Virus genome (UHGV): UHGV-0211740
Origin: a virus
Length of the DNA stretch: 64,000 nucleotides
Reading direction: 5' to 3' (one strand)
A model generated the notes under the pieces. That model was not told the origin of the DNA and searched no databases. It was given only the letters and a program-made list of their open reading frames with translations. Of this stretch, positions 2,162-49,656 are shown piece after piece (positions within the stretch are counted from its first letter, which is position 1; every line of letters begins with the position of its first letter). The position numbers and the translations under genes were made by a program.

Positions 2162-2534
2162 CTCTGAACCCTTCGTGATCAGGCATAACAGAGAACCGGA
2201 TATCTACGATGCCTTCCCACGTTAGGCCATCAGCCTCAGGATCACCCTGGGATTGCAGTAGGGTGGCTTCAGATATGCGTGTGTTGGTCATGCTCCGCCC
2301 GTGAGTATTCCGGCAACAGCCATTATGGACGTAATGATCATCAGGATCACCACTAAAACATCGGACAATGTTTTCATTGTGCACTCCATATTCTCCAGAC
2401 TATGTGTGGATACTATCACGGGAGGAGGAATGTGTCAACAGGAACGTCGCGAGGGTTTGGTTAAAATCCGAGCGTATGGTGATTTGGGTCAAAACGGACG
2501 TGCGTTCTCGCTACGCTCGAAATAAAAAGTATAC

Positions 2535-2756
2535 TTAAGGCTTTTTGCGGTCCAGTATCTGCTTACGCTGGATAAAGTGCATAAATGTCTCAGCCCATGA
2601 GCAATTCTGATACTCTCGGTACTTGTGCATTGCTTGACGACTCACACCGTACTCTGCAGCAAATGTAGAGACACGTAGAAAATCTGGCAGATCATCATCT
2701 TCAAAATATACCGTACTGAGAGCAATATCGTTATCGTCGTATAGAACAACTTTCAT
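2535..2756 (-). CDS. small protein, possible HTH DNA-binding
   Basis: 73-aa ORF; segment AAEYGVSRQAM resembles a helix-turn-helix recognition helix. Confidence 0.3.
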   Translation of the reverse strand: MKVVLYDDNDIALSTVYFEDDDLPDFLRVSTFAAEYGVSRQAMHKYREYQNCSWAETFMHFIQRKQILDRKKP

Positions 2757-3218
2757 AAATGATACCTCAAGATGTGGTGGTTTAGGGAAACAGTTAAATT
2801 CTTTCTAAAACGCTCTGTGATGAGATTAACTATCTAAGGTATGCAATCGTGCATCAGATAAAGAAAAGGACGCCACAGAGCGTCCTAGGTGCCTTAAATT
2901 CTATATTTTGCTATACCCATGAAGGTTTGTCCAGGTTAGAGTAGCTAAAAGGTGTCAAAAGGTGACTGTCAAAATCTTTCAAACTCTCCAGGTCTTTTTC
3001 CTCATCCTGACACCATCTGTGCCTACATTTATTGTTGTAGTGCATGGAATGCATGGCGTTCTGCAACTTAACAGGCACAAGTGATTCAGGAGCAGATAAT
3101 ACAGTAGGGTATGCCAGAACTACCTCAAACAGTGGAAACACATCAAAACTGAAGTCTATTTCTGCTGAGGTGGCTGGCATGTATGAGTATTTAGCTGTCT
3201 TTGTAGACATAATTCACC

Positions 3219-3545
3219 TCACACAGGTTTGATAATACCTTCACCGAATAGCTCTTCGTATCTAATCTTATCCGGATCCCACTCCTGGATAATTTCGAAG
3301 ACAATATCCAACCCAGGAATAATCACTTCTCCAGTGTCAAGCTTGGCAAGAACAAAACCAGAAGGCTGAATGGTTTCCCAGTTGCGACGATTGGAATAGA
3401 AGACCTCGAAAATATCACCGACCTTGATCTGTTGATCAAGATGTTCAAGATTCTCTTTCATATAGACACAGCGTATTTTTCGTGCAGGCCATAGACCACC
3501 TGCATCACGTTCATTCAATTCTTTTACAGTAATCGGCACACCCAT
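3219..3545 (-). CDS. hypothetical protein
   Basis: 108-aa ORF, tightly packed with neighbours on minus strand. Confidence 0.45.
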   Translation of the reverse strand: MGVPITVKELNERDAGGLWPARKIRCVYMKENLEHLDQQIKVGDIFEVFYSNRRNWETIQPSGFVLAKLDTGEVIIPGLDIVFEIIQEWDPDKIRYEELFGEGIIKPV

Positions 3546-3601: not shown

Positions 3602-3907
3602 TTATTCTACAGAGCGTTTGAACAGAATGTCTGCCTCAGACATGTGTTCAACCTCTTCTTCGATTTTAGCTCGACGTTTTTCAGCCTCGTAGCGAATATC
3701 GAACTCGGTAGCCACCAGAGATTTGATGAATTTAGGAGAATACAGGTGATCCTGCTTCTCAACAAGGATGATATCCTTGATAGCATCTTTCAGATCTTTA
3801 ATCTGAAGCTGAAGTTCCACCAGCTCTTCAATTGTTTTACGGAGGCGATCACGCTCTGCGATGTCAGAAGGAAGAGAGGTGAACAGTTCAACTTTAGATT
3901 TAGCCAT
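3602..3907 (-). CDS. hypothetical protein (coiled-coil rich)
   Basis: 101-aa ORF, charged helical composition. Confidence 0.45.
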   Translation of the reverse strand: MAKSKVELFTSLPSDIAERDRLRKTIEELVELQLQIKDLKDAIKDIILVEKQDHLYSPKFIKSLVATEFDIRYEAEKRRAKIEEEVEHMSEADILFKRSVE

Positions 3908-3935
3908 AGTAAGGGTCTCCTTATATTGTTTTAAA

Positions 3936-4253
3936 TTAACGTTCTACAAAAATACCGTTCAGTTCGATGACCAGGAATTTCTGGTCTTCGCTATCGTCAC
4001 GTGCCAGAACCTCACAGACGTAGCGGTCATCCCCATCATCATCACAGTCAAATACAAGACTAAGGACTTTATCATGATAAATCTTCGCCACTACTGCCTC
4101 GTAAGTATTGCCGATTGTGAATCCAAGATAGTCCCCGATGCATTTGACAACAACATGGTCGCCAGCATTTAAGTCAATCTTCGTCATTACTGCGCTCCTT
4201 GGGTAATAATATGGTATGTAAAACTTTAACCAGAGATGTGAATAACGCCCCAA
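3936..4253 (-). CDS. hypothetical protein
   Basis: 105-aa ORF. Confidence 0.45.
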   Translation of the reverse strand: MGRYSHLWLKFYIPYYYPRSAVMTKIDLNAGDHVVVKCIGDYLGFTIGNTYEAVVAKIYHDKVLSLVFDCDDDGDDRYVCEVLARDDSEDQKFLVIELNGIFVER

Positions 4254-43659: not shown

Positions 43660-43734
43660 GCCCTGTTAGCTTAGTGGATAAAGCAGCGGCCTTCTAAGCC
43701 GTTGACACTGGTTCGAGTCCAGTACGGGGTGCCA
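43660..43734 (+). tRNA. tRNA-Arg (anticodon TCT)
   Basis: 7-bp acceptor stem, T-arm CTGGTTCGAGTCCAG, anticodon loop CTTCTAA, 3-prime CCA encoded. Confidence 0.75.
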
Positions 43735-43738
43735 AATC

Positions 43739-43825
43739 GGGGAGTTATACCGTAGAGGTAGCGGTGTAGACTGTAAATCTATTGTCATTGCGACTCGGGT
43801 GGTTCGACTCCATCACTCCCCACCA
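43739..43825 (+). tRNA. tRNA-Tyr (anticodon GTA)
   Basis: Acceptor GGGGAGT/ACTCCCC, anticodon loop CTGTAAA, long variable arm, T-loop GGTTCGACTCC, CCA encoded. Confidence 0.75.
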
Positions 43826-43936
43826 AAATCCCATATTTGTGATAAATAATATAGATAATGACATTGATGTTTATCGTCGTTTATACTAGTCCCTAACTGT
43901 TCGAAAATCAGTGTCATTATCAGTGTTGTTTATAAA

Positions 43937-44026
43937 AGAGAGTAGGGAGCATGGTGCTCAAGCGGTCTTGAAAACCGTCCCGTTGAGATATCCTCGATGA
44001 TGGTTCGATTCCATTACTCTCTGCCA
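43937..44026 (+). tRNA. tRNA-Ser (anticodon TGA)
   Basis: Perfect 7-bp acceptor AGAGAGT/ACTCTCT, anticodon loop CTTGAAA, long variable arm, T-loop TTCGATT, CCA encoded. Confidence 0.75.
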
Positions 44027-44124
44027 GATCGTGGATCATGAAATTAAGCGAGCGCCGGAAGCAGAACCGGATTAACAAATGTTACAGTCGTCATCGCCGA
44101 CTAGCAGCATGATCCACATAATAT

Positions 44125-44221
44125 GCTAGGTAAGCCCTTTGGCAAGGGCGAGGATTTTTAATCCTGAAAATAGACGAAGCAGTCGTTGAATACATAGGTG
44201 GTTCGATTCCATCGCCTAGCA
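44125..44221 (+). tRNA. atypical 97-nt tRNA-like gene (possible pseudo-tRNA or non-canonical tRNA)
   Basis: Perfect acceptor stem GCTAGGT/GCCTAGC and canonical T-arm GGTGGTTCGATTCCATC, but no clean 5-bp anticodon stem with 7-nt loop (closest is AGGA/TCCT with loop TTTTTAA) plus about 30 nt of extra internal sequence; no encoded CCA. Confidence 0.35.
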
Positions 44222-44228
44222 CCTTTTT

Positions 44229-44304
44229 GCTGATGTAGCACAATTGGTAGTGCAATTGATTTGTAATCAATAGGTTGCAGGTTCAAGTCCTGCCATCAGC
44301 ACCA
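44229..44304 (+). tRNA. tRNA-Thr (anticodon TGT)
   Basis: Acceptor GCTGATG/CATCAGC, anticodon stem-loop ATTGA-TTTGTAA-TCAAT, T-loop GGTTCAAGTCC, CCA encoded. Confidence 0.8.
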
Positions 44305-44305
44305 T

Positions 44306-44380
44306 GTCCCTGTAGCTGGAAGGTTCAAGCAAGCGACTCATAATCGCCAGACGGTGGTTCAATTCCACCCAGGGCCACCA
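44306..44380 (+). tRNA. tRNA-Met or Ile2 (anticodon CAT)
   Basis: Acceptor GTCCCTG/CAGGGCC with one mismatch, anticodon loop CTCATAA, T-arm GGTGGTTCAATTCCACC, CCA encoded. Confidence 0.7.
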
Positions 44381-44391
44381 AATTATAAATA

Positions 44392-44468
44392 CTCCGCGTA
44401 GCTCAGCTTGGTAGAGCGCCTGATTTGGGATCAGGAGGTCGAGTGTTCGAATCACTCCGTGGAGACCA
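44392..44468 (+). tRNA. tRNA-Pro (anticodon TGG)
   Basis: C1-G72 acceptor CTCCGCG/CGTGGAG, D-arm AGCTCAGCTTGGTAGAGC, anticodon loop TTTGGGA, T-loop GTTCGAATC, CCA encoded. Confidence 0.8.
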
Positions 44469-45285: not shown

Positions 45286-45569
45286 GAGTTGCTGCACTAC
45301 TTATTATGTGCTTGTTATTATGTGGGTGTACAACCAGCGTTGAGAGAGAATACAAGATTGACCCTCCGGATGTAGGGAGGTTGATTGTTAAACCACCAGA
45401 GGGTGCCATGAAACCACCTGCTAAAGCCGTGCCTTTGAAGAAGGGTGCCCCGGATGCGGTGAATTCTGGCATTATGAGGGATAATAACCTATCTTGCAGT
45501 AATGATAGAGCTAAATTAATCATTTTGCAAGACTATATTAGAACACTGTTTCCAAAGGAGAGAGGTTAA
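45282..45569 (+). CDS. putative o-spanin (Rz1-like lipoprotein)
   Basis: Lipobox LLLCGC near the N-terminus, proline-rich mature region, overlaps i-spanin stop. Confidence 0.55.
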   Translation: MRVAALLIMCLLLCGCTTSVEREYKIDPPDVGRLIVKPPEGAMKPPAKAVPLKKGAPDAVNSGIMRDNNLSCSNDRAKLIILQDYIRTLFPKERG

Positions 45570-45994
45570 TGTCTAAGATTTACGGACCGTGTTCTGAAAA
45601 GCAGAAGATGATCCTGGAAAATGATGCAGATATTTTGGTAATTGGCGGGGCTGCAGGATCTGGCAAGTCATTCCTCTTGCAGCTAATGCCGCTTAAAATT
45701 ATTGATGACCCGCACAGCTCTGTGGTTATGTTCCGAAGAACAACCCCACAGTTGGAAGGTGAGGGGGGACTATGGCCTAAAGCAGTAGCTATTTATAGTG
45801 ATCTGCCAGAAAACATTAAGCCAAAGTTTAGAGAGAAGGATCATAAGTTCATTTTTCCACGGTTTGATCCGAGCACTGGCAAGTGGGACAGGAGCAAAAA
45901 GGGAGCTGTTGTAAAATACTGCCACATGGAATATGTCCAAGATAAGCTTAACCATCAGGGTTTGGAATACACCATGGTTTGCTTCGATGAGGGT
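45569..45994 (+). CDS. terL: terminase large subunit, exon 1 (ATPase N-terminal part)
   Basis: Walker A GGAAGSGKS and Walker B MVCFDE; reading frame terminates at a TAA that begins the intron. Confidence 0.75.
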
Positions 45995-46877
45995 TAATTT
46001 GTAGCTCTCGTAAAACCTCCCTAATTGCGGGGAAATCTTTATTATTGACACCACCAATCTGTCATGGTAACATGATAGAGGCTTCGAAGAGAGATCGAAG
46101 GTATGGTAACAGTGTGTTAATTTAGATAATCCGCAGCGAAGCATCCGAGAGGATGAACGTTCAACGACTAGTCGAAAGACGTAGAATCAAGCGATTCGAA
46201 ACGGGAGGGTGCATGTGTAATACTAAAAAATGTATGGATTGCCAAAGAGTTCTACCTATTGATGATTTCTTTTTATCATCTAAGAGCAAGGATGGATACT
46301 CAGGTACATGCAAGGAATGCTATATGTACTACAGGAAGGGTGGATCTCGTAAAAACAAAAATATGGTTAAGAGAGATGACGCAGCATTGTTTATTCAAGA
46401 CTTGCTGAAGAAAGGTGAACTTTTTGAATGCAAATCTTGTCATAAAAGTATGCTCGCTGATAGTTTTTACACAAAACGTGACTATGGCAAAGTATATCTG
46501 GTTACGAACAGGTGTAAGATGTGTGAAAAGTTTTATCAGATTGAGAAGAAATTTCACATAACAAAAGATGAATACTATCGTCTACTCTCAGATCAAGATC
46601 ATAAGTGTGCCATTTGTAGAATATCTCTTGATGAGTATAGGACGCAAGGGTACAGAGATTTCTTTTGTGTTGATCATGACCATAAAACTGGTGCTGTAAG
46701 AGGGTTGCTTTGTGATAAATGCAACAGAGCTTTAGGCTTCTTCCAAGAAGATGAGGAAACTATTCTTAAAGCGGCAGAATATTTACACATTCATAAGATA
46801 TAGTCTGGTCTGCATGGAGACATGCAGCTGCCTGAAAATGGCGGGGCAAGACTAGCGACCTTGCCCGAACATAAACG
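45995..46877 (+). mobile_element. group I self-splicing intron carrying a homing endonuclease ORF (3-prime boundary approximate)
   Basis: Core elements in canonical order: P AATTGCGGGGAAA (~46030), Q AATCCGCAGC (46128), R GTTCAACGACTAGTC (46159), S AAGATATAGTCTGG (46795); internal guide GCTCTC pairs with exon end GAGGGT. Confidence 0.65.
46153..46803 (+). CDS. intron-encoded homing endonuclease, Endonuclease VII/HNH-like
   Basis: Cys-rich N-terminus and CVDHDHKTGAVRGLLCDKCN Endo VII core; ORF lies between intron R and S elements; true start may be an internal ATG. Confidence 0.65.
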   Translation: MNVQRLVERRRIKRFETGGCMCNTKKCMDCQRVLPIDDFFLSSKSKDGYSGTCKECYMYYRKGGSRKNKNMVKRDDAALFIQDLLKKGELFECKSCHKSMLADSFYTKRDYGKVYLVTNRCKMCEKFYQIEKKFHITKDEYYRLLSDQDHKCAICRISLDEYRTQGYRDFFCVDHDHKTGAVRGLLCDKCNRALGFFQEDEETILKAAEYLHIHKI

Positions 46878-47999
46878 ACACAATTCGAATGGGAGCAGAT
46901 AGACTATCTGATGTCTCGTTTGCGATCTCAGTCAAAGTATCCATCAAGAATGGTTATCAGCTGTAACCCCGACTCAGAGCATATGCTTGCCAAACTGGTT
47001 AGATGGTGGCTGGACGATGAAGGGTATCCAGATCCGGAGAAATGTGGCAAGAAAAGATATTTTATCCGGCGTGACGGTGAATTTATTTGGGGAGACTCTA
47101 AAGAGGAGTTGATAGAGAAATACACCACAGTTAATGGACTGGGTGTGGAGATCAAGCCAAGACCGTTGTCATTCTCGTTTATAGGCGCAACAATATTCGA
47201 TAATCCTGTCTGCTTGAGAGACAACCCAGAATACCTTGCTTTCCTTGAAGGTCTGCCAGAACTGGAAAAAGCTCAGCTTCTTCATGGTAACTGGTTTGCC
47301 AAACCTGAGGGTGCGAACTACTTTCAAAGATCTTTCCTTCGTGATGCCGACAGCGTACCTTTAGGGTCTGTGTCTTGCAGGGCATGGGATAAAGCTGGAA
47401 CTGAAAGAACTTCAGGTAATAAATTCCCTGACTTTACTGCCAGTGTCAAGGTAAGTAAAGATAGTGATGGATTCTACTACCTGTCAGGAGATTATTGTCC
47501 GGAGAACGTGGATGACGGGAGATATTCCACAGGTCTGGAAGGCAAGTTCTGTAAAAAGGCTGGCGAACGAGATGTGATCATCAGGAAACAGGCGCAGTTT
47601 GATGGTGATGATTGTATAATCGTATTCTCTGTGGACCCCGGTCAGGCAGGTAAGAGTGAGTTCTTAACCTCATCCAGATCCTTGCTCGCCGAAGGTTTCA
47701 GGGTTGAAGAAGACCCAATGCCTTCCAACAAATCTAAACTGACAAGGTTCTCACCTTTTGCCAATCTTGCCCAACAAGGGATGGTGAGGATTGTAAAATC
47801 CAGTTTCCATCCTGATACTTTGGAAGCATTTCTGACTGAACTTGAAAAGTTCAACGGGGAAAGATCAACATTTAACAGAAAAGACGACTGGGCCGACTGT
47901 GTAGCATCTGCGATTAATTTCCTGGAGAAAGAGGAGGTAGCACTGCCTTGTGTGATCCCATCAATATCATCACCTTCTATGTTTAAGCGTTTTATCTAA
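46878..47999 (+). CDS. terL: terminase large subunit, exon 2 (ATPase C-motif and nuclease domain); exon start approximate
   Basis: In-frame continuation with no stops from 46875; contains VISCNP coupling-motif-like segment and C-terminal nuclease-like acidic residues; possible splice acceptors after G at 46877, 46892, 46895 or 46898. Confidence 0.65.
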   Translation, partial: TQFEWEQIDYLMSRLRSQSKYPSRMVISCNPDSEHMLAKLVRWWLDDEGYPDPEKCGKKRYFIRRDGEFIWGDSKEELIEKYTTVNGLGVEIKPRPLSFSFIGATIFDNPVCLRDNPEYLAFLEGLPELEKAQLLHGNWFAKPEGANYFQRSFLRDADSVPLGSVSCRAWDKAGTERTSGNKFPDFTASVKVSKDSDGFYYLSGDYCPENVDDGRYSTGLEGKFCKKAGERDVIIRKQAQFDGDDCIIVFSVDPGQAGKSEFLTSSRSLLAEGFRVEEDPMPSNKSKLTRFSPFANLAQQGMVRIVKSSFHPDTLEAFLTELEKFNGERSTFNRKDDWADCVASAINFLEKEEVALPCVIPSISSPSMFKRFI

Positions 48000-48099
48000 G
48001 TGTTGCCAATCTTGATCAGATGTGGTACAATAGAGTAATTGGAGATACTAGCCCTCTGACGAGGGCTATTTTGTTATACTGTTTTGAGGGGTAAAGCTT

Positions 48100-49656
48100 G
48101 TGTCCAAAAAGAACCGCAGGAAACACAACGCCACAGCCAAAACTGTGAATAAATCTGGGAACGCAGGCGCACCAACTCATAATGTTCGTATGAGTGAGAT
48201 CGGTTCTGGCGCACTTTCCCAAATTATGGCAGAATCGCAATCTATGATGGTTGAGGAATTGCGTTGGCCTCAGCTGATTGCCACAGTGGAGACTATGAAA
48301 TGTGATTCCACAGTTGCTACTGCCTTAGATACAAAATATGTTTTCATCACGAAAGCATTTAATGATTTTAAGATCCTTTATAATGTTAAAAGTGAAGACT
48401 CTAAGAAAGCTGCCGAGCTTATAGAGTATTCTTTGCATAATTTGGCAAACCAACAAACTCTTCGAGATATTGCAAGAAGCGCAGCTACCTTTAACGAGTA
48501 TGGTTTTTCACTGTTTGAGAAAGTATACCGCAGAGAGAAAGAAGGTAAATACGCCGGGATGCTTCTTATTGATAAAATTGCATTCCGACCTCAGGCCAGT
48601 CTGTCCAGATCAGAGCCGTTTGTCTTTGACAAGAACAGTAGAACACTGACAGGTATTTATCAGTCACCTAATGCATTTCTAAACAATCAGAATGCACGCT
48701 GGGCTGGACCTCTTGCTGCAATGCCTTCAAAAGGCTTTAATGAGCCTGAAATTTTCATTCCTGCTAAAAAGCTTATGCTCATGACCCTGTCAGGAACAGA
48801 ATCTAATCCTGCAGGTGTGTCACCGATGATAGGTTGCTACAGATCTTTCCGTGAGAAAGTTCTGATTGAAAACCTTGAGGTTGTTGGCTGCTCCAAAGAC
48901 CTTGGTGGTGTGCTTGAGCTGAAAATTCCTTCCAATATTTTGAATAAGGCCAGTATTGACCCGAATTCGATGGAAGGGAGAATGGTTGCAGATCTGATGC
49001 TTGACGCAGCAAACGCCCACAGTGGTGAGCAAAGTTTCTTTATACTTCCGTCTGATAGGGATAAATCTGGTAAAGAGCTTTACTCTATGACCCTGAAGGG
49101 GGTTGATGGTATTGGTAAGCAGTATTCCACTAAAGATCTGATTGATGCCCGTAAGAAGGCGATTCTTGACCGTTTCGGTGCTGGCTTTATTAACCTCGGT
49201 AACGATAACGTTGGATCCTTCTCTCTGTCTGAGTCAAAACAATCTATCCATGGTCATTTTGTTCAGCGTGATATAGATATTATCACCGAGGCCTTCAATA
49301 AAGATCTTATTCCACAGCTTCTGGCATTGAATGGTATCATCCTTGAAGATGATGATATGCCTAAACTGAAACCCGGTCTGATTGAAGAAGTGGACATGGA
49401 GAGCTTCTCCAAGTTTGTCCAGAGGATCGGTGCTGTAGGTTACTTGCCAAAAACTCCTGCAGTAATTAATAAGATTCTTGAAGTAGGCGGGTTTGATGAA
49501 AGATTTGACGAGGACATGGATCAGGAAGAGCTGATGAAGCTCTTGGGCCAGGATATCAGCAGGGCTGGTGATGGAATGGCTGCAGGATCCACTGGAAACG
49601 GCACTTCTAAGATGTCATCAACCAGAGATAATTCCGTATCCAACATGGAAAATTAA
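48100..49656 (+). CDS. portal protein
   Basis: 518-aa ORF (GTG start) immediately downstream of terminase; size and position typical of portal. Confidence 0.65.
   Translation: MSKKNRRKHNATAKTVNKSGNAGAPTHNVRMSEIGSGALSQIMAESQSMMVEELRWPQLIATVETMKCDSTVATALDTKYVFITKAFNDFKILYNVKSEDSKKAAELIEYSLHNLANQQTLRDIARSAATFNEYGFSLFEKVYRREKEGKYAGMLLIDKIAFRPQASLSRSEPFVFDKNSRTLTGIYQSPNAFLNNQNARWAGPLAAMPSKGFNEPEIFIPAKKLMLMTLSGTESNPAGVSPMIGCYRSFREKVLIENLEVVGCSKDLGGVLELKIPSNILNKASIDPNSMEGRMVADLMLDAANAHSGEQSFFILPSDRDKSGKELYSMTLKGVDGIGKQYSTKDLIDARKKAILDRFGAGFINLGNDNVGSFSLSESKQSIHGHFVQRDIDIITEAFNKDLIPQLLALNGIILEDDDMPKLKPGLIEEVDMESFSKFVQRIGAVGYLPKTPAVINKILEVGGFDERFDEDMDQEELMKLLGQDISRAGDGMAAGSTGNGTSKMSSTRDNSVSNMEN

Follow-up and report, generated by a model that had tools for sequence, protein, structure and literature searches.

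A predicted mobile group IA intron with an Endo VII-type homing endonuclease gene in the terminase large subunit gene of a Vequintavirus genome

Introduction

In virus genome UHGV-0211740, of which a stretch of 64,000 nucleotides (the window) was analysed here, the reading frame of the terminase large subunit (TerL) stops directly after the Walker B motif (MVCFDEG), at a TAA at position 45995, and resumes in frame about 0.9 kb downstream. This arrangement raises the question of whether TerL is one protein whose mRNA is restored by splicing or two proteins translated from a gene that is truly split. An earlier note, made from the DNA sequence alone, had recorded the interruption just as we find it and ascribed it to a group I intron carrying an Endo VII-like homing endonuclease.

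More than 100 GenBank records of Vequintavirus (rV5-like coliphages) are 95–98% identical to the 2.7 kb around the interruption; the best match to this region is OX460980 (97.7%), and phage JES2013 is among the records 95% identical to it. TerL is preceded by six tRNA genes, then by an i-spanin/o-spanin pair, and the tRNA set and order are as in rV5. By its sequence, the window is a Vequintavirus, that is, an rV5-like coliphage.

The element is already known from this group. In the section "Introns in terminase", the rV5 paper (Kropinski et al. 2013; PMC3606486) describes a TerL that is divided into three segments and accompanied by a single homing endonuclease; the basis given there is BLASTX only, and D. 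Shub is thanked for locating the intron. In the RefSeq record of rV5 (NC_011041), TerL is annotated as a three-part join. Similarly, the record of phage HeinrichReichert (MZ501073), which belongs to the BASEL collection (PMC8594841), gives TerL as a join that encloses a "putative homing endonuclease", and a protein of "Escherichia phage 2 JES-2013" is listed among intron-encoded endonucleases with the Endo VII motif (Fang et al. 2018; PMC6083498). Among terminase large subunit genes, terL of Lactobacillus phage LL-H was the first from which a group I intron was reported (Mikkonen and Alatossava 1995, as cited in PMC3606486), and splicing of a TerL intron has been shown by RT-PCR in Pectobacterium phage CB7, a Certrevirus of the Vequintavirinae (PMC7344957). 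In the literature on the Vequintavirus TerL intron itself, we found no splicing or cleavage experiment. The interpretation offered by the earlier note is therefore correct but ordinary; what is refined here are the exact 3′ splice site, the start of the endonuclease ORF and the placement of that ORF in P8.

Results

Cutting out positions 45995–46877 (883 nt) yields a 1548-nt ORF that reads ...DEG/TQFEW... (the slash marks the insertion site), which is the length found in intron-less phages. An uninterrupted TerL of 1548 nt is present in the sister phages AlexBoehm and FFH2, and alignment of the spliced product with these intron-less terminases, a check proposed in the earlier note, showed that 513–514 of the 515 amino acids are identical. 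Further, the Pfam family Terminase_6N runs continuously over residues 25–294 of the spliced protein (profile positions 2–211, E = 4.6e-20), compared with E = 8e-6 and 1.6e-7 for the two fragments taken separately, exon 1 covering profile positions 2–104. The spliced protein also matches Terminase_6C (E = 2.7e-6), as in a T4-type large terminase (PF03237 / PF17289). The junction peptide spans ...CFDEGTQFEWEQ..., and the intron-less site in AlexBoehm and FFH2 reads ...TTCGATGAGGGC ACGCAGTTCGAATGG.... The coordinates of all features are collected in Table 1.

Group I chemistry requires an exon that ends in U and an intron that ends in G. The final codon of exon 1, GGT, occupies 45992–45994 and is followed by the in-frame TAA at 45995–45997; U45994, the last base of the exon and the 5′ splice-site U, and G46877 at the intron end fit this rule. 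The earlier note had preferred 46878 as the first base of exon 2 but considered its position ambiguous. The intron-less alleles bear out the preference and remove the ambiguity: because they fix the junction, exon 2 begins at 46878, and 3′ splice sites at 46892, 46895 and 46898 are excluded. A shifted splice pair, 45994/46876, would produce the same mRNA but breaks the rule of U at −1 and a terminal G. Among the six alleles read at the junction, the four that contain the intron have GGT/ACA and the two that lack it have GGC/ACG, base −1 thus being T in 4/4 and C in 2/2. In GGT/ACA, the T supplies the splice-site U and the A lengthens a possible P10, in which UGU at 46000–46002 can pair with exon-2 ACA at 46878–46880.

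Table 1. Positions of the TerL exons, the intron and its elements in the window
Feature	Position	Strand	Sequence or description	Evidence
TerL exon 1	45569..45994	+	142 codons, Walker A to Walker B ...MVCFDEG	ORF list; Pfam Terminase_6N; intron-less alleles
P1	45989..46009	+	exon GAGGGU (45989-45994) and intron UA with guide UAGCUCUC (46002-46009)	Rfam alignment; MFE fold
Group I intron	45995..46877	+	883 nt, from in-frame TAA to G46877	Rfam RF00028; own model R1, 135.8 bits; exon restoration
P3, 5′ strand	46016..46021	+	CCUCCC, partner GGGAGG 46203-46208	MFE fold; 5/6 pairs change on both sides
P element	46023-46035	+	AATTGCGGGGAAA	sequence check
P4	46025..46136	+	UUGCGGG 46025-46031 with UCCGCAG 46130-46136; encloses P5 and an extension of ~90 nt	fold, covariation
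Sigma-70-like site	46045..46073	+	TTGACA-17 nt-TAACAT, upstream TG, in P5 extension	consensus scan only
Q element	46128-46137	+	AATCCGCAGC	sequence check
P6a	46142..46155	+	hairpin CAUCC-GAGA-GGAUG	MFE fold; 4/5 pairs change on both sides
R element	46159-46173	+	GTTCAACGACTAGTC	Rfam consensus
P7, 5′ strand	46166..46170	+	GACUA (in R), partner UAGUC 46801-46805	Rfam consensus R and S; almost invariant
P7.1	46171-46180	+	GUC-GAAA-GAC	MFE fold; covaries
P7.2	46184-46197	+	GAAUC-AAGC-GAUUC	MFE fold; covaries
P3, 3′ strand	46203..46208	+	GGGAGG	fold, covariation
P8 with ORF in loop	46209..46794	+	GUGCAUGUGUAA (46209-46220) and UUACACAUUCAU (46783-46794), 11/12 paired	JohannBauhin alignment; Rfam insert position
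Predicted homing endonuclease	46213..46803	+	196 aa, Endo VII/DHHRN type	PF02945; PHROG endonuclease VII families; PDB matches; GenBank start
S element	46795..46808	+	AAGATATAGTCTGG, holds P7 3′ strand UAGUC 46801-46805	Rfam consensus
P9	46810-46827	+	CUGCAUG-GAGA-CAUGCAG	fold, covariation
P9.1, P9.2 and 3′ tail	46810..46877 (with P9)	+	P9.1 46830-46842; P9.2 46844-46866; tail to G46877	fold, covariation
TerL exon 2	46878..47999	+	373 codons and stop, begins ACA CAA TTC GAA TGG (TQFEW)	intron-less alleles; spliced-protein domain matches

The covariance-model search suggested in the earlier note supported the assignment to group I. When the local stretch was searched by E-value with the Rfam family RF00028 (Intron_gpI), positions 45985–46827 matched the whole model (positions 1–253) at 44.8 bits (E = 7.6e-10). 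The score falls under the gathering value of 50, a shortfall caused by the 586-nt P8/ORF segment, which stands where ORF-less alleles have a 22-nt P8 hairpin: the 319-nt ORF-less intron of phage JohannBauhin, whose core outside P8 is identical to that of the window at 293/297 positions, scores 84.3 bits (E = 8.5e-21). An Rfam scan of the whole window at the gathering threshold reported tRNAs only and not the TerL intron.

The minimum free energy (MFE) fold of the ORF-less allele gives P1, P3, P4, P5 and its extension, P6a, P7.1, P7.2, P8, P9, P9.1 and P9.2 (z = −6.3). A covariance model of our own, R1, built on the trimmed core of this structure, found introns in the ribonucleotide reductase gene of phiNIT1, a phiKZ-like phage, a Vibrio phage, the DNA polymerase gene of PaoP5, TerL of KIL1, and the td and nrdB genes of T-even phages; it detected no further group I intron in the 64-kb window. 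In introns whose P5 or P6 holds a long insertion, the Vequintavirus intron included, R1 mis-aligned the 5′ half (P3, P4 and P5); the mis-aligned rows were masked by hand for the wider set, and the formal pair count was limited to seven fully aligned independent introns. In these seven phage introns, 96.7% of cells hold standard pairs, compared with 38–46% when the partners are slid, and 29/43 pairs have changed on both sides, values reached in 0/500 shuffles, although the alignment was fitted to the model and the fit favours the proposed structure. In the wider, hand-masked set, 436/445 cells are paired. P7, which is nearly invariant in the homologs, and P10, which is too short, yield no covariation information.

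The proposed helices agree with the elements named in the earlier note. It had listed P, Q, R and S in canonical order, and all four are present within a base or two of where it placed them; the strands that it assigned to P7 (GACTA and TAGTC) lie at 46166–46170 and 46801–46805 and match the Rfam consensus of R and S. The internal guide GCTCTC that it proposed is confirmed at 46004–46009, where it pairs with GAGGGT at 45989–45994 with the splice-site U45994 in a wobble opposite G46004. It had also named failure of P, Q, R and S to fold into a group I structure as grounds for rejection; apart from P7, the group I helices listed above were instead recovered by the MFE fold and kept in the homologs. 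P and Q vary in a compensatory way in other phage introns (GCUGG/CAGCA and UCAGG/CCUGA), and of the hairpins in the P5 extension (46059–46078 and 46082–46100), the former shows a compensatory change from C-G to U-A in rV5. P2 is absent, and P1 and P3 are spaced by only 6 nt. P7.1 and P7.2, peripheral helices typical of subgroup IA, are present between P7 and the 3′ strand of P3, which is the criterion for that subgroup, and by this structure the intron belongs to subgroup IA, with which the BLAST similarity of its P7–P9 region to the T-even td and nrdB introns agrees. As to IA2 or IA1, its likeness to the td and nrdB introns offers only a lead. Given its in-frame stops and its group I core, the element can be neither an intein nor a group II intron.

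The intron carries an ORF of 216 codons (46153–46803), which the earlier note had described as having an Endo VII/HNH core, lying in the interval between R and S and ending in a stop codon that overlaps S. The ORF, its core and the overlap are as described, the stop (TAG 46801–46803) lying inside S and the 3′ strand of P7; its location within the R–S interval did not hold because it starts 6 nt upstream of R. A protein start at 46153 was rejected: the 60 nt from there belong to the ribozyme core (P6a, R, P7.1, P7.2 and the 3′ strand of P3) and are identical in ORF-less alleles. Sequence specific to the ORF-containing form, judged against JohannBauhin, begins at 46209, and the GenBank annotators of HeinrichReichert and HdK5 also chose the ATG at 46213. 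The endonuclease therefore most likely starts at this ATG and is 196 aa long. The GGGAGG at 46203–46208 would then double as its Shine-Dalgarno sequence, 4–5 nt before the ATG.

The 196-aa protein matches Endonuclease_7 (PF02945) with 75 bits (cutoff 23.6; E = 4e-21), and its top-scoring hits in the PDB are the restriction enzyme Hpy99I (E = 4e-6) and T4 Endo VII (E = 5e-4). The CxxC...DHDH...R...CxxC-N motif (DHHRN/Endo VII), as defined in PMC6083498, is complete; the catalytic and zinc residues C132, C135, D154, H155, H157, R163, C167, C170 and N171 are all kept. The N-terminal half holds two CxxC...CxxC modules (residues 7–36 and 73–104); this Cys-rich half has no significant Pfam match, its sole match being a PHROG labelled "Lar-like". 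The protein is found at 95–99% identity in exactly 30 phage records, which are the carriers of the long intron. Its remaining matches in phage genomes are <60% identical, and most of those listed carry the annotation of a separate "endonuclease VII" gene. Overall, covariance model, covariation, exon restoration and the Pfam Endonuclease_7 match agree on a group I intron with an Endo VII-like endonuclease in TerL, as the earlier note had proposed.

The ORF is closely interlaced with the ribozyme. The AUG of the endonuclease sits in the 12-bp P8 stem, and its last three codons and stop are drawn from the conserved core, S and P7. Since the presumed Shine-Dalgarno sequence is the 3′ strand of P3, the AUG lies in P8 and the stop in P7, folding of the RNA and translation of the ORF would be expected to compete. 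The P5 extension further contains a sigma-70-like site (46045–46073), possibly an internal promoter, that is present in rV5, which lacks the homing endonuclease gene, and degraded in JohannBauhin, which also lacks it. A link between the TTGACA −35 hexamer and the presence of the ORF was not supported: of these two ORF-less introns, that of rV5 has the hexamer and that of JohannBauhin does not.

Three states of the site coexist among ~120 related records: intron with ORF in 30, intron without ORF in ~23, and no intron at that position in the others. In a comparison of the window with HeinrichReichert, 11/883 positions of the intron with its ORF differ, as do 35/756 in the flanking exons (Fisher p = 3e-5), which makes the divergence of the former about four times lower; for the ORF segment alone compared with exon 1, p = 5e-4. 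These values point to a common ancestry of the intron that is more recent than that of its host gene and are consistent with recent homing. The low divergence of the ribozyme core could also come from structural constraint, an argument that fails for the synonymous sites in the ORF. A second group I intron, of 979 nt and with an unrelated HNH gene, lies deeper in exon 2 of rV5, HdK5 and others; it occurs in all combinations with the first and is not present in the window.

Discussion

Taken together, the interruption of TerL is very probably a mobile group IA intron, related to those of td and nrdB, that is inserted after Walker B (DEG/T) and encodes a homing endonuclease in P8. According to this model, the pre-mRNA folds into a P1–P9 ribozyme core, exogenous guanosine would attack after U45994, which the guide (46004–46009) holds in a U-G wobble, and the exons would be ligated after G46877 to give the mRNA for a 515-aa TerL. 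Because the in-frame TAA, the first codon of the intron, would stop ribosomes on unspliced RNA, this mRNA could arise only by splicing. The endonuclease, predicted to consist of two zinc-ribbon-like modules and an Endo VII/DHHRN nuclease domain of the beta-beta-alpha-metal type, would in a mixed infection presumably cut or nick an intron-less TerL near the insertion site, and repair would copy the intron in (homing).

Two readings that dispense with splicing were weighed against this model. TerL could be truly split into proteins of 142 aa and ~362 aa that assemble with each other, the endonuclease being a free-standing cassette that only resembles an intron. Several GenBank records do annotate two separate terminase CDSs, and an ATG is available at 46911; however, that start drops 11 conserved codons (TQFEWEQIDYL), and this reading gives no other reason for the conservation of the ORF-less 319-nt form at 98–100%. 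It is also difficult to reconcile with a complete group I core supported by covariation and with the fact that removal of the 883 nt restores the uninterrupted allele exactly and in frame, a U standing at the splice site and a G at the intron end, and we consider it extremely improbable. Equally slight is the chance that the intron is a dead remnant unable to splice and TerL a pseudogene of a defective phage or an assembly artefact. Although the closest record is an unannotated wastewater assembly, 30 records share the arrangement and many of these come from plaque-purified isolates, the core is 98.6–99.7% identical to those of viable phages, and the helices are free of any disrupting change. 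Indeed, the intron interrupts this essential gene in viable isolates (among them rV5 and phages of the BASEL collection), with TerL annotated as a join.

It is more conceivable, albeit still unlikely, that the intron splices but that its endonuclease no longer serves homing, either because it is decaying or because it is kept for another role, for example as a maturase, the distribution of alleles then reflecting vertical descent and loss. The ~23 records with an ORF-less intron and the more than half without any intron are what would be expected late in a homing cycle, and the nearest relatives of the protein outside the carrier phages are <60% identical. Nevertheless, the ORF is intact and 98–99% identical across 30 records with every catalytic and zinc residue kept, it has diverged less than the flanking exons, favouring recent spread, and the P8 hairpin of the ORF-less alleles is a different, compact one rather than a deletion remnant of the ORF. 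We favour an intron that both splices and is mobile.

Among known systems, the closest are the phages that share the element. In HeinrichReichert, JES2013, APECc02 and HdK5, the same intron and ORF are 98–99% identical to those of the window, the ORF having the same 591-nt coordinates and TerL being given as a join; only a few point differences separate them, and the flanking exons are ~94% identical. Intron 1 of rV5 has the same insertion site and the same 5′ and 3′ ends, and its core outside P8 is identical at 292/297 positions; unlike in the window, it is the 319-nt ORF-less form, and another intron, 979 nt long and carrying an HNH gene, follows in exon 2. The CB7 intron also lies in TerL at Walker B, in a phage of the same subfamily, and is likewise of group I and carries an ORF of HNH type, but it is inserted 6 nt upstream (VD/EG rather than DEG/T) and differs in P4, endonuclease and ORF position. 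With a score of only 44.5 bits against R1, it is by these comparisons a different intron from that of Vequintavirus.

The T-even introns resemble that of the window in P7–P9 by BLAST (82% over 79 nt for td and 73% over 109 nt for nrdB), in having P7.1 and P7.2, in the early in-frame stop and in the optional endonuclease ORF. These IA2 introns, with I-TevI and I-TevIII, differ in host gene and endonuclease family, and the window intron lacks P2. The ORF also sits elsewhere: that of the td intron is located in P6 and that of RB9 nrdB upstream of R, whereas the ORF of the window is in P8. The DHHRN family (F-CphI), Hpy99I and T4 Endo VII share the C-terminal CxxC...DHDH...R...CxxCN core with the window protein; F-CphI is free-standing beside an intron, in contrast to the ORF of the window, which lies inside one (Fang et al. 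2018). LL-H, an unrelated siphovirus of a Gram-positive host, is likened here by description only.

The overlap of the ORF with the ribozyme invites a further, tentative proposal. Folding of the ribozyme and translation of the endonuclease may be mutually exclusive, and a transcript from the site at 46045–46073, which would lack the 5′ strand of P3, may be a dedicated endonuclease mRNA: without that strand, the shorter transcript could not fold, and the Shine-Dalgarno sequence would be left free. Judging from the layout of the sequence, we regard this as possible but rather doubtful. If true, expression of the endonuclease would be uncoupled from the supply of terminase, which would still be a variation on a known theme. 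Conflicts of a comparable kind between translation and splicing are known from T4 I-TevI.

The practical value of the analysis lies in annotation. Many GenBank relatives list two "terminase" fragments and a "recombination endonuclease VII" where there is very probably one spliced TerL and an intron-encoded homing endonuclease, and the coordinates 45995–46877 correct the annotation of TerL for UHGV-0211740. A further point of interest is that the intron of the Certrevirus CB7 lies only 6 nt away, at the same catalytic motif of TerL. None of these observations changes current understanding. Overall, with three allele types coexisting in a single phage genus, TerL of Vequintavirus neatly illustrates the homing cycle as it occurs in nature.

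Sequence features surrounding the TerL gene

The TerL-portal gap contains both a promoter-like site and a terminator-like hairpin, and the portal gene starts with a GTG codon at 48100; the records of HdK5 and rV5 have a terminator annotated between TerL and the portal gene. A further site, resembling a sigma-70 promoter, is located within the P5 extension of intron 1, upstream of the endonuclease gene. The same site is found in intron 1 of rV5, an intron with no endonuclease ORF, and is mutated to TTAATA in the likewise ORF-less intron of JohannBauhin. The six tRNA genes of the window are identical in set and order to those of rV5; the tRNA-Ser gene among them was detected by ARAGORN and had no Rfam match at the gathering threshold.

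We also note 18 GenBank records (MG0656xx) that bear the name "Campylobacter phage" and list C. jejuni as host; over TerL they are 94-96% identical to the E. coli Vequintaviruses. The C. jejuni host label of these records looks doubtful.

Coordinates of introns, group I core matches, tRNA genes and promoter- and terminator-like sites in the window and in comparison loci
Feature	Sequence	Position	Details
Six tRNA genes	Window	43660-44468	Arg-TCT, Tyr, Ser-TGA, Thr, Met, Pro
tRNA-Ser	Window	43937-44026
TerL junction	Window	45992-45994 and 46878-46883	Compared with loci L003 and L005
Sigma-70-like site	Window	46045-46073	TTGACA-17 nt-TAACAT, upstream TG; 10/12 matches
Promoter-like site	Window	48003-48031	TTGCCA-17 nt-TACAAT
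Terminator-like hairpin	Window	48049-48068	T-rich tail after it
Second TerL intron	HdK5 locus (L002)	2301-3291	P 2341, Q 2372, R 3114
Second TerL intron	rV5 locus (L017)	3884-4063	Minus strand
TerL intron	Pectobacterium phage CB7 locus (L018)	385-1350
Group I core match	Pseudomonas phage KIL1 locus (L013)	2223-2390	76.7 bits
Group I core matches	Escherichia phage TH18 locus (L014)	843-1011 and 1470-1662

Known and putative group I introns in TerL and other genes of related phages

In some Vequintaviruses, exon 2 of TerL is itself interrupted by a second group I intron of ∼979 nt, which carries a 228-aa HNH ORF between Q and R (PHROG 59, E = 1e-50). This second intron is absent from the window, and every combination of the two TerL introns was found among the relatives. 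At the junction of intron 1, synonymous differences are linked with intron presence: in the six alleles read, those containing the intron have GGT|ACA CA(A/G), whereas those lacking it have GGC|ACG CAG. Possible explanations are co-conversion, the requirements of the splice site, or protection against the endonuclease.

KIL1 also has a strong match to the group I core, located shortly after the annotated end (2207) of its join-annotated TerL and ahead of the CDS that comes next (2417). The match may mark one more intron that has escaped annotation, in which case the downstream "hypothetical protein" may be another TerL exon. In TH18, a member of the Vequintavirinae, the two core matches separate fragments annotated as DNA polymerase and are probably unannotated introns.

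Splicing of the CB7 TerL intron has been reported by RT-PCR (PMC7344957). Both this intron and its endonuclease differ from intron 1 of the Vequintaviruses and its endonuclease. The CB7 insertion site precedes that of the Vequintaviruses by just 6 nt (VD|EG in CB7 compared with DEG|T in Vequintaviruses). Thus, TerL appears to have been targeted repeatedly at its Walker B codons.
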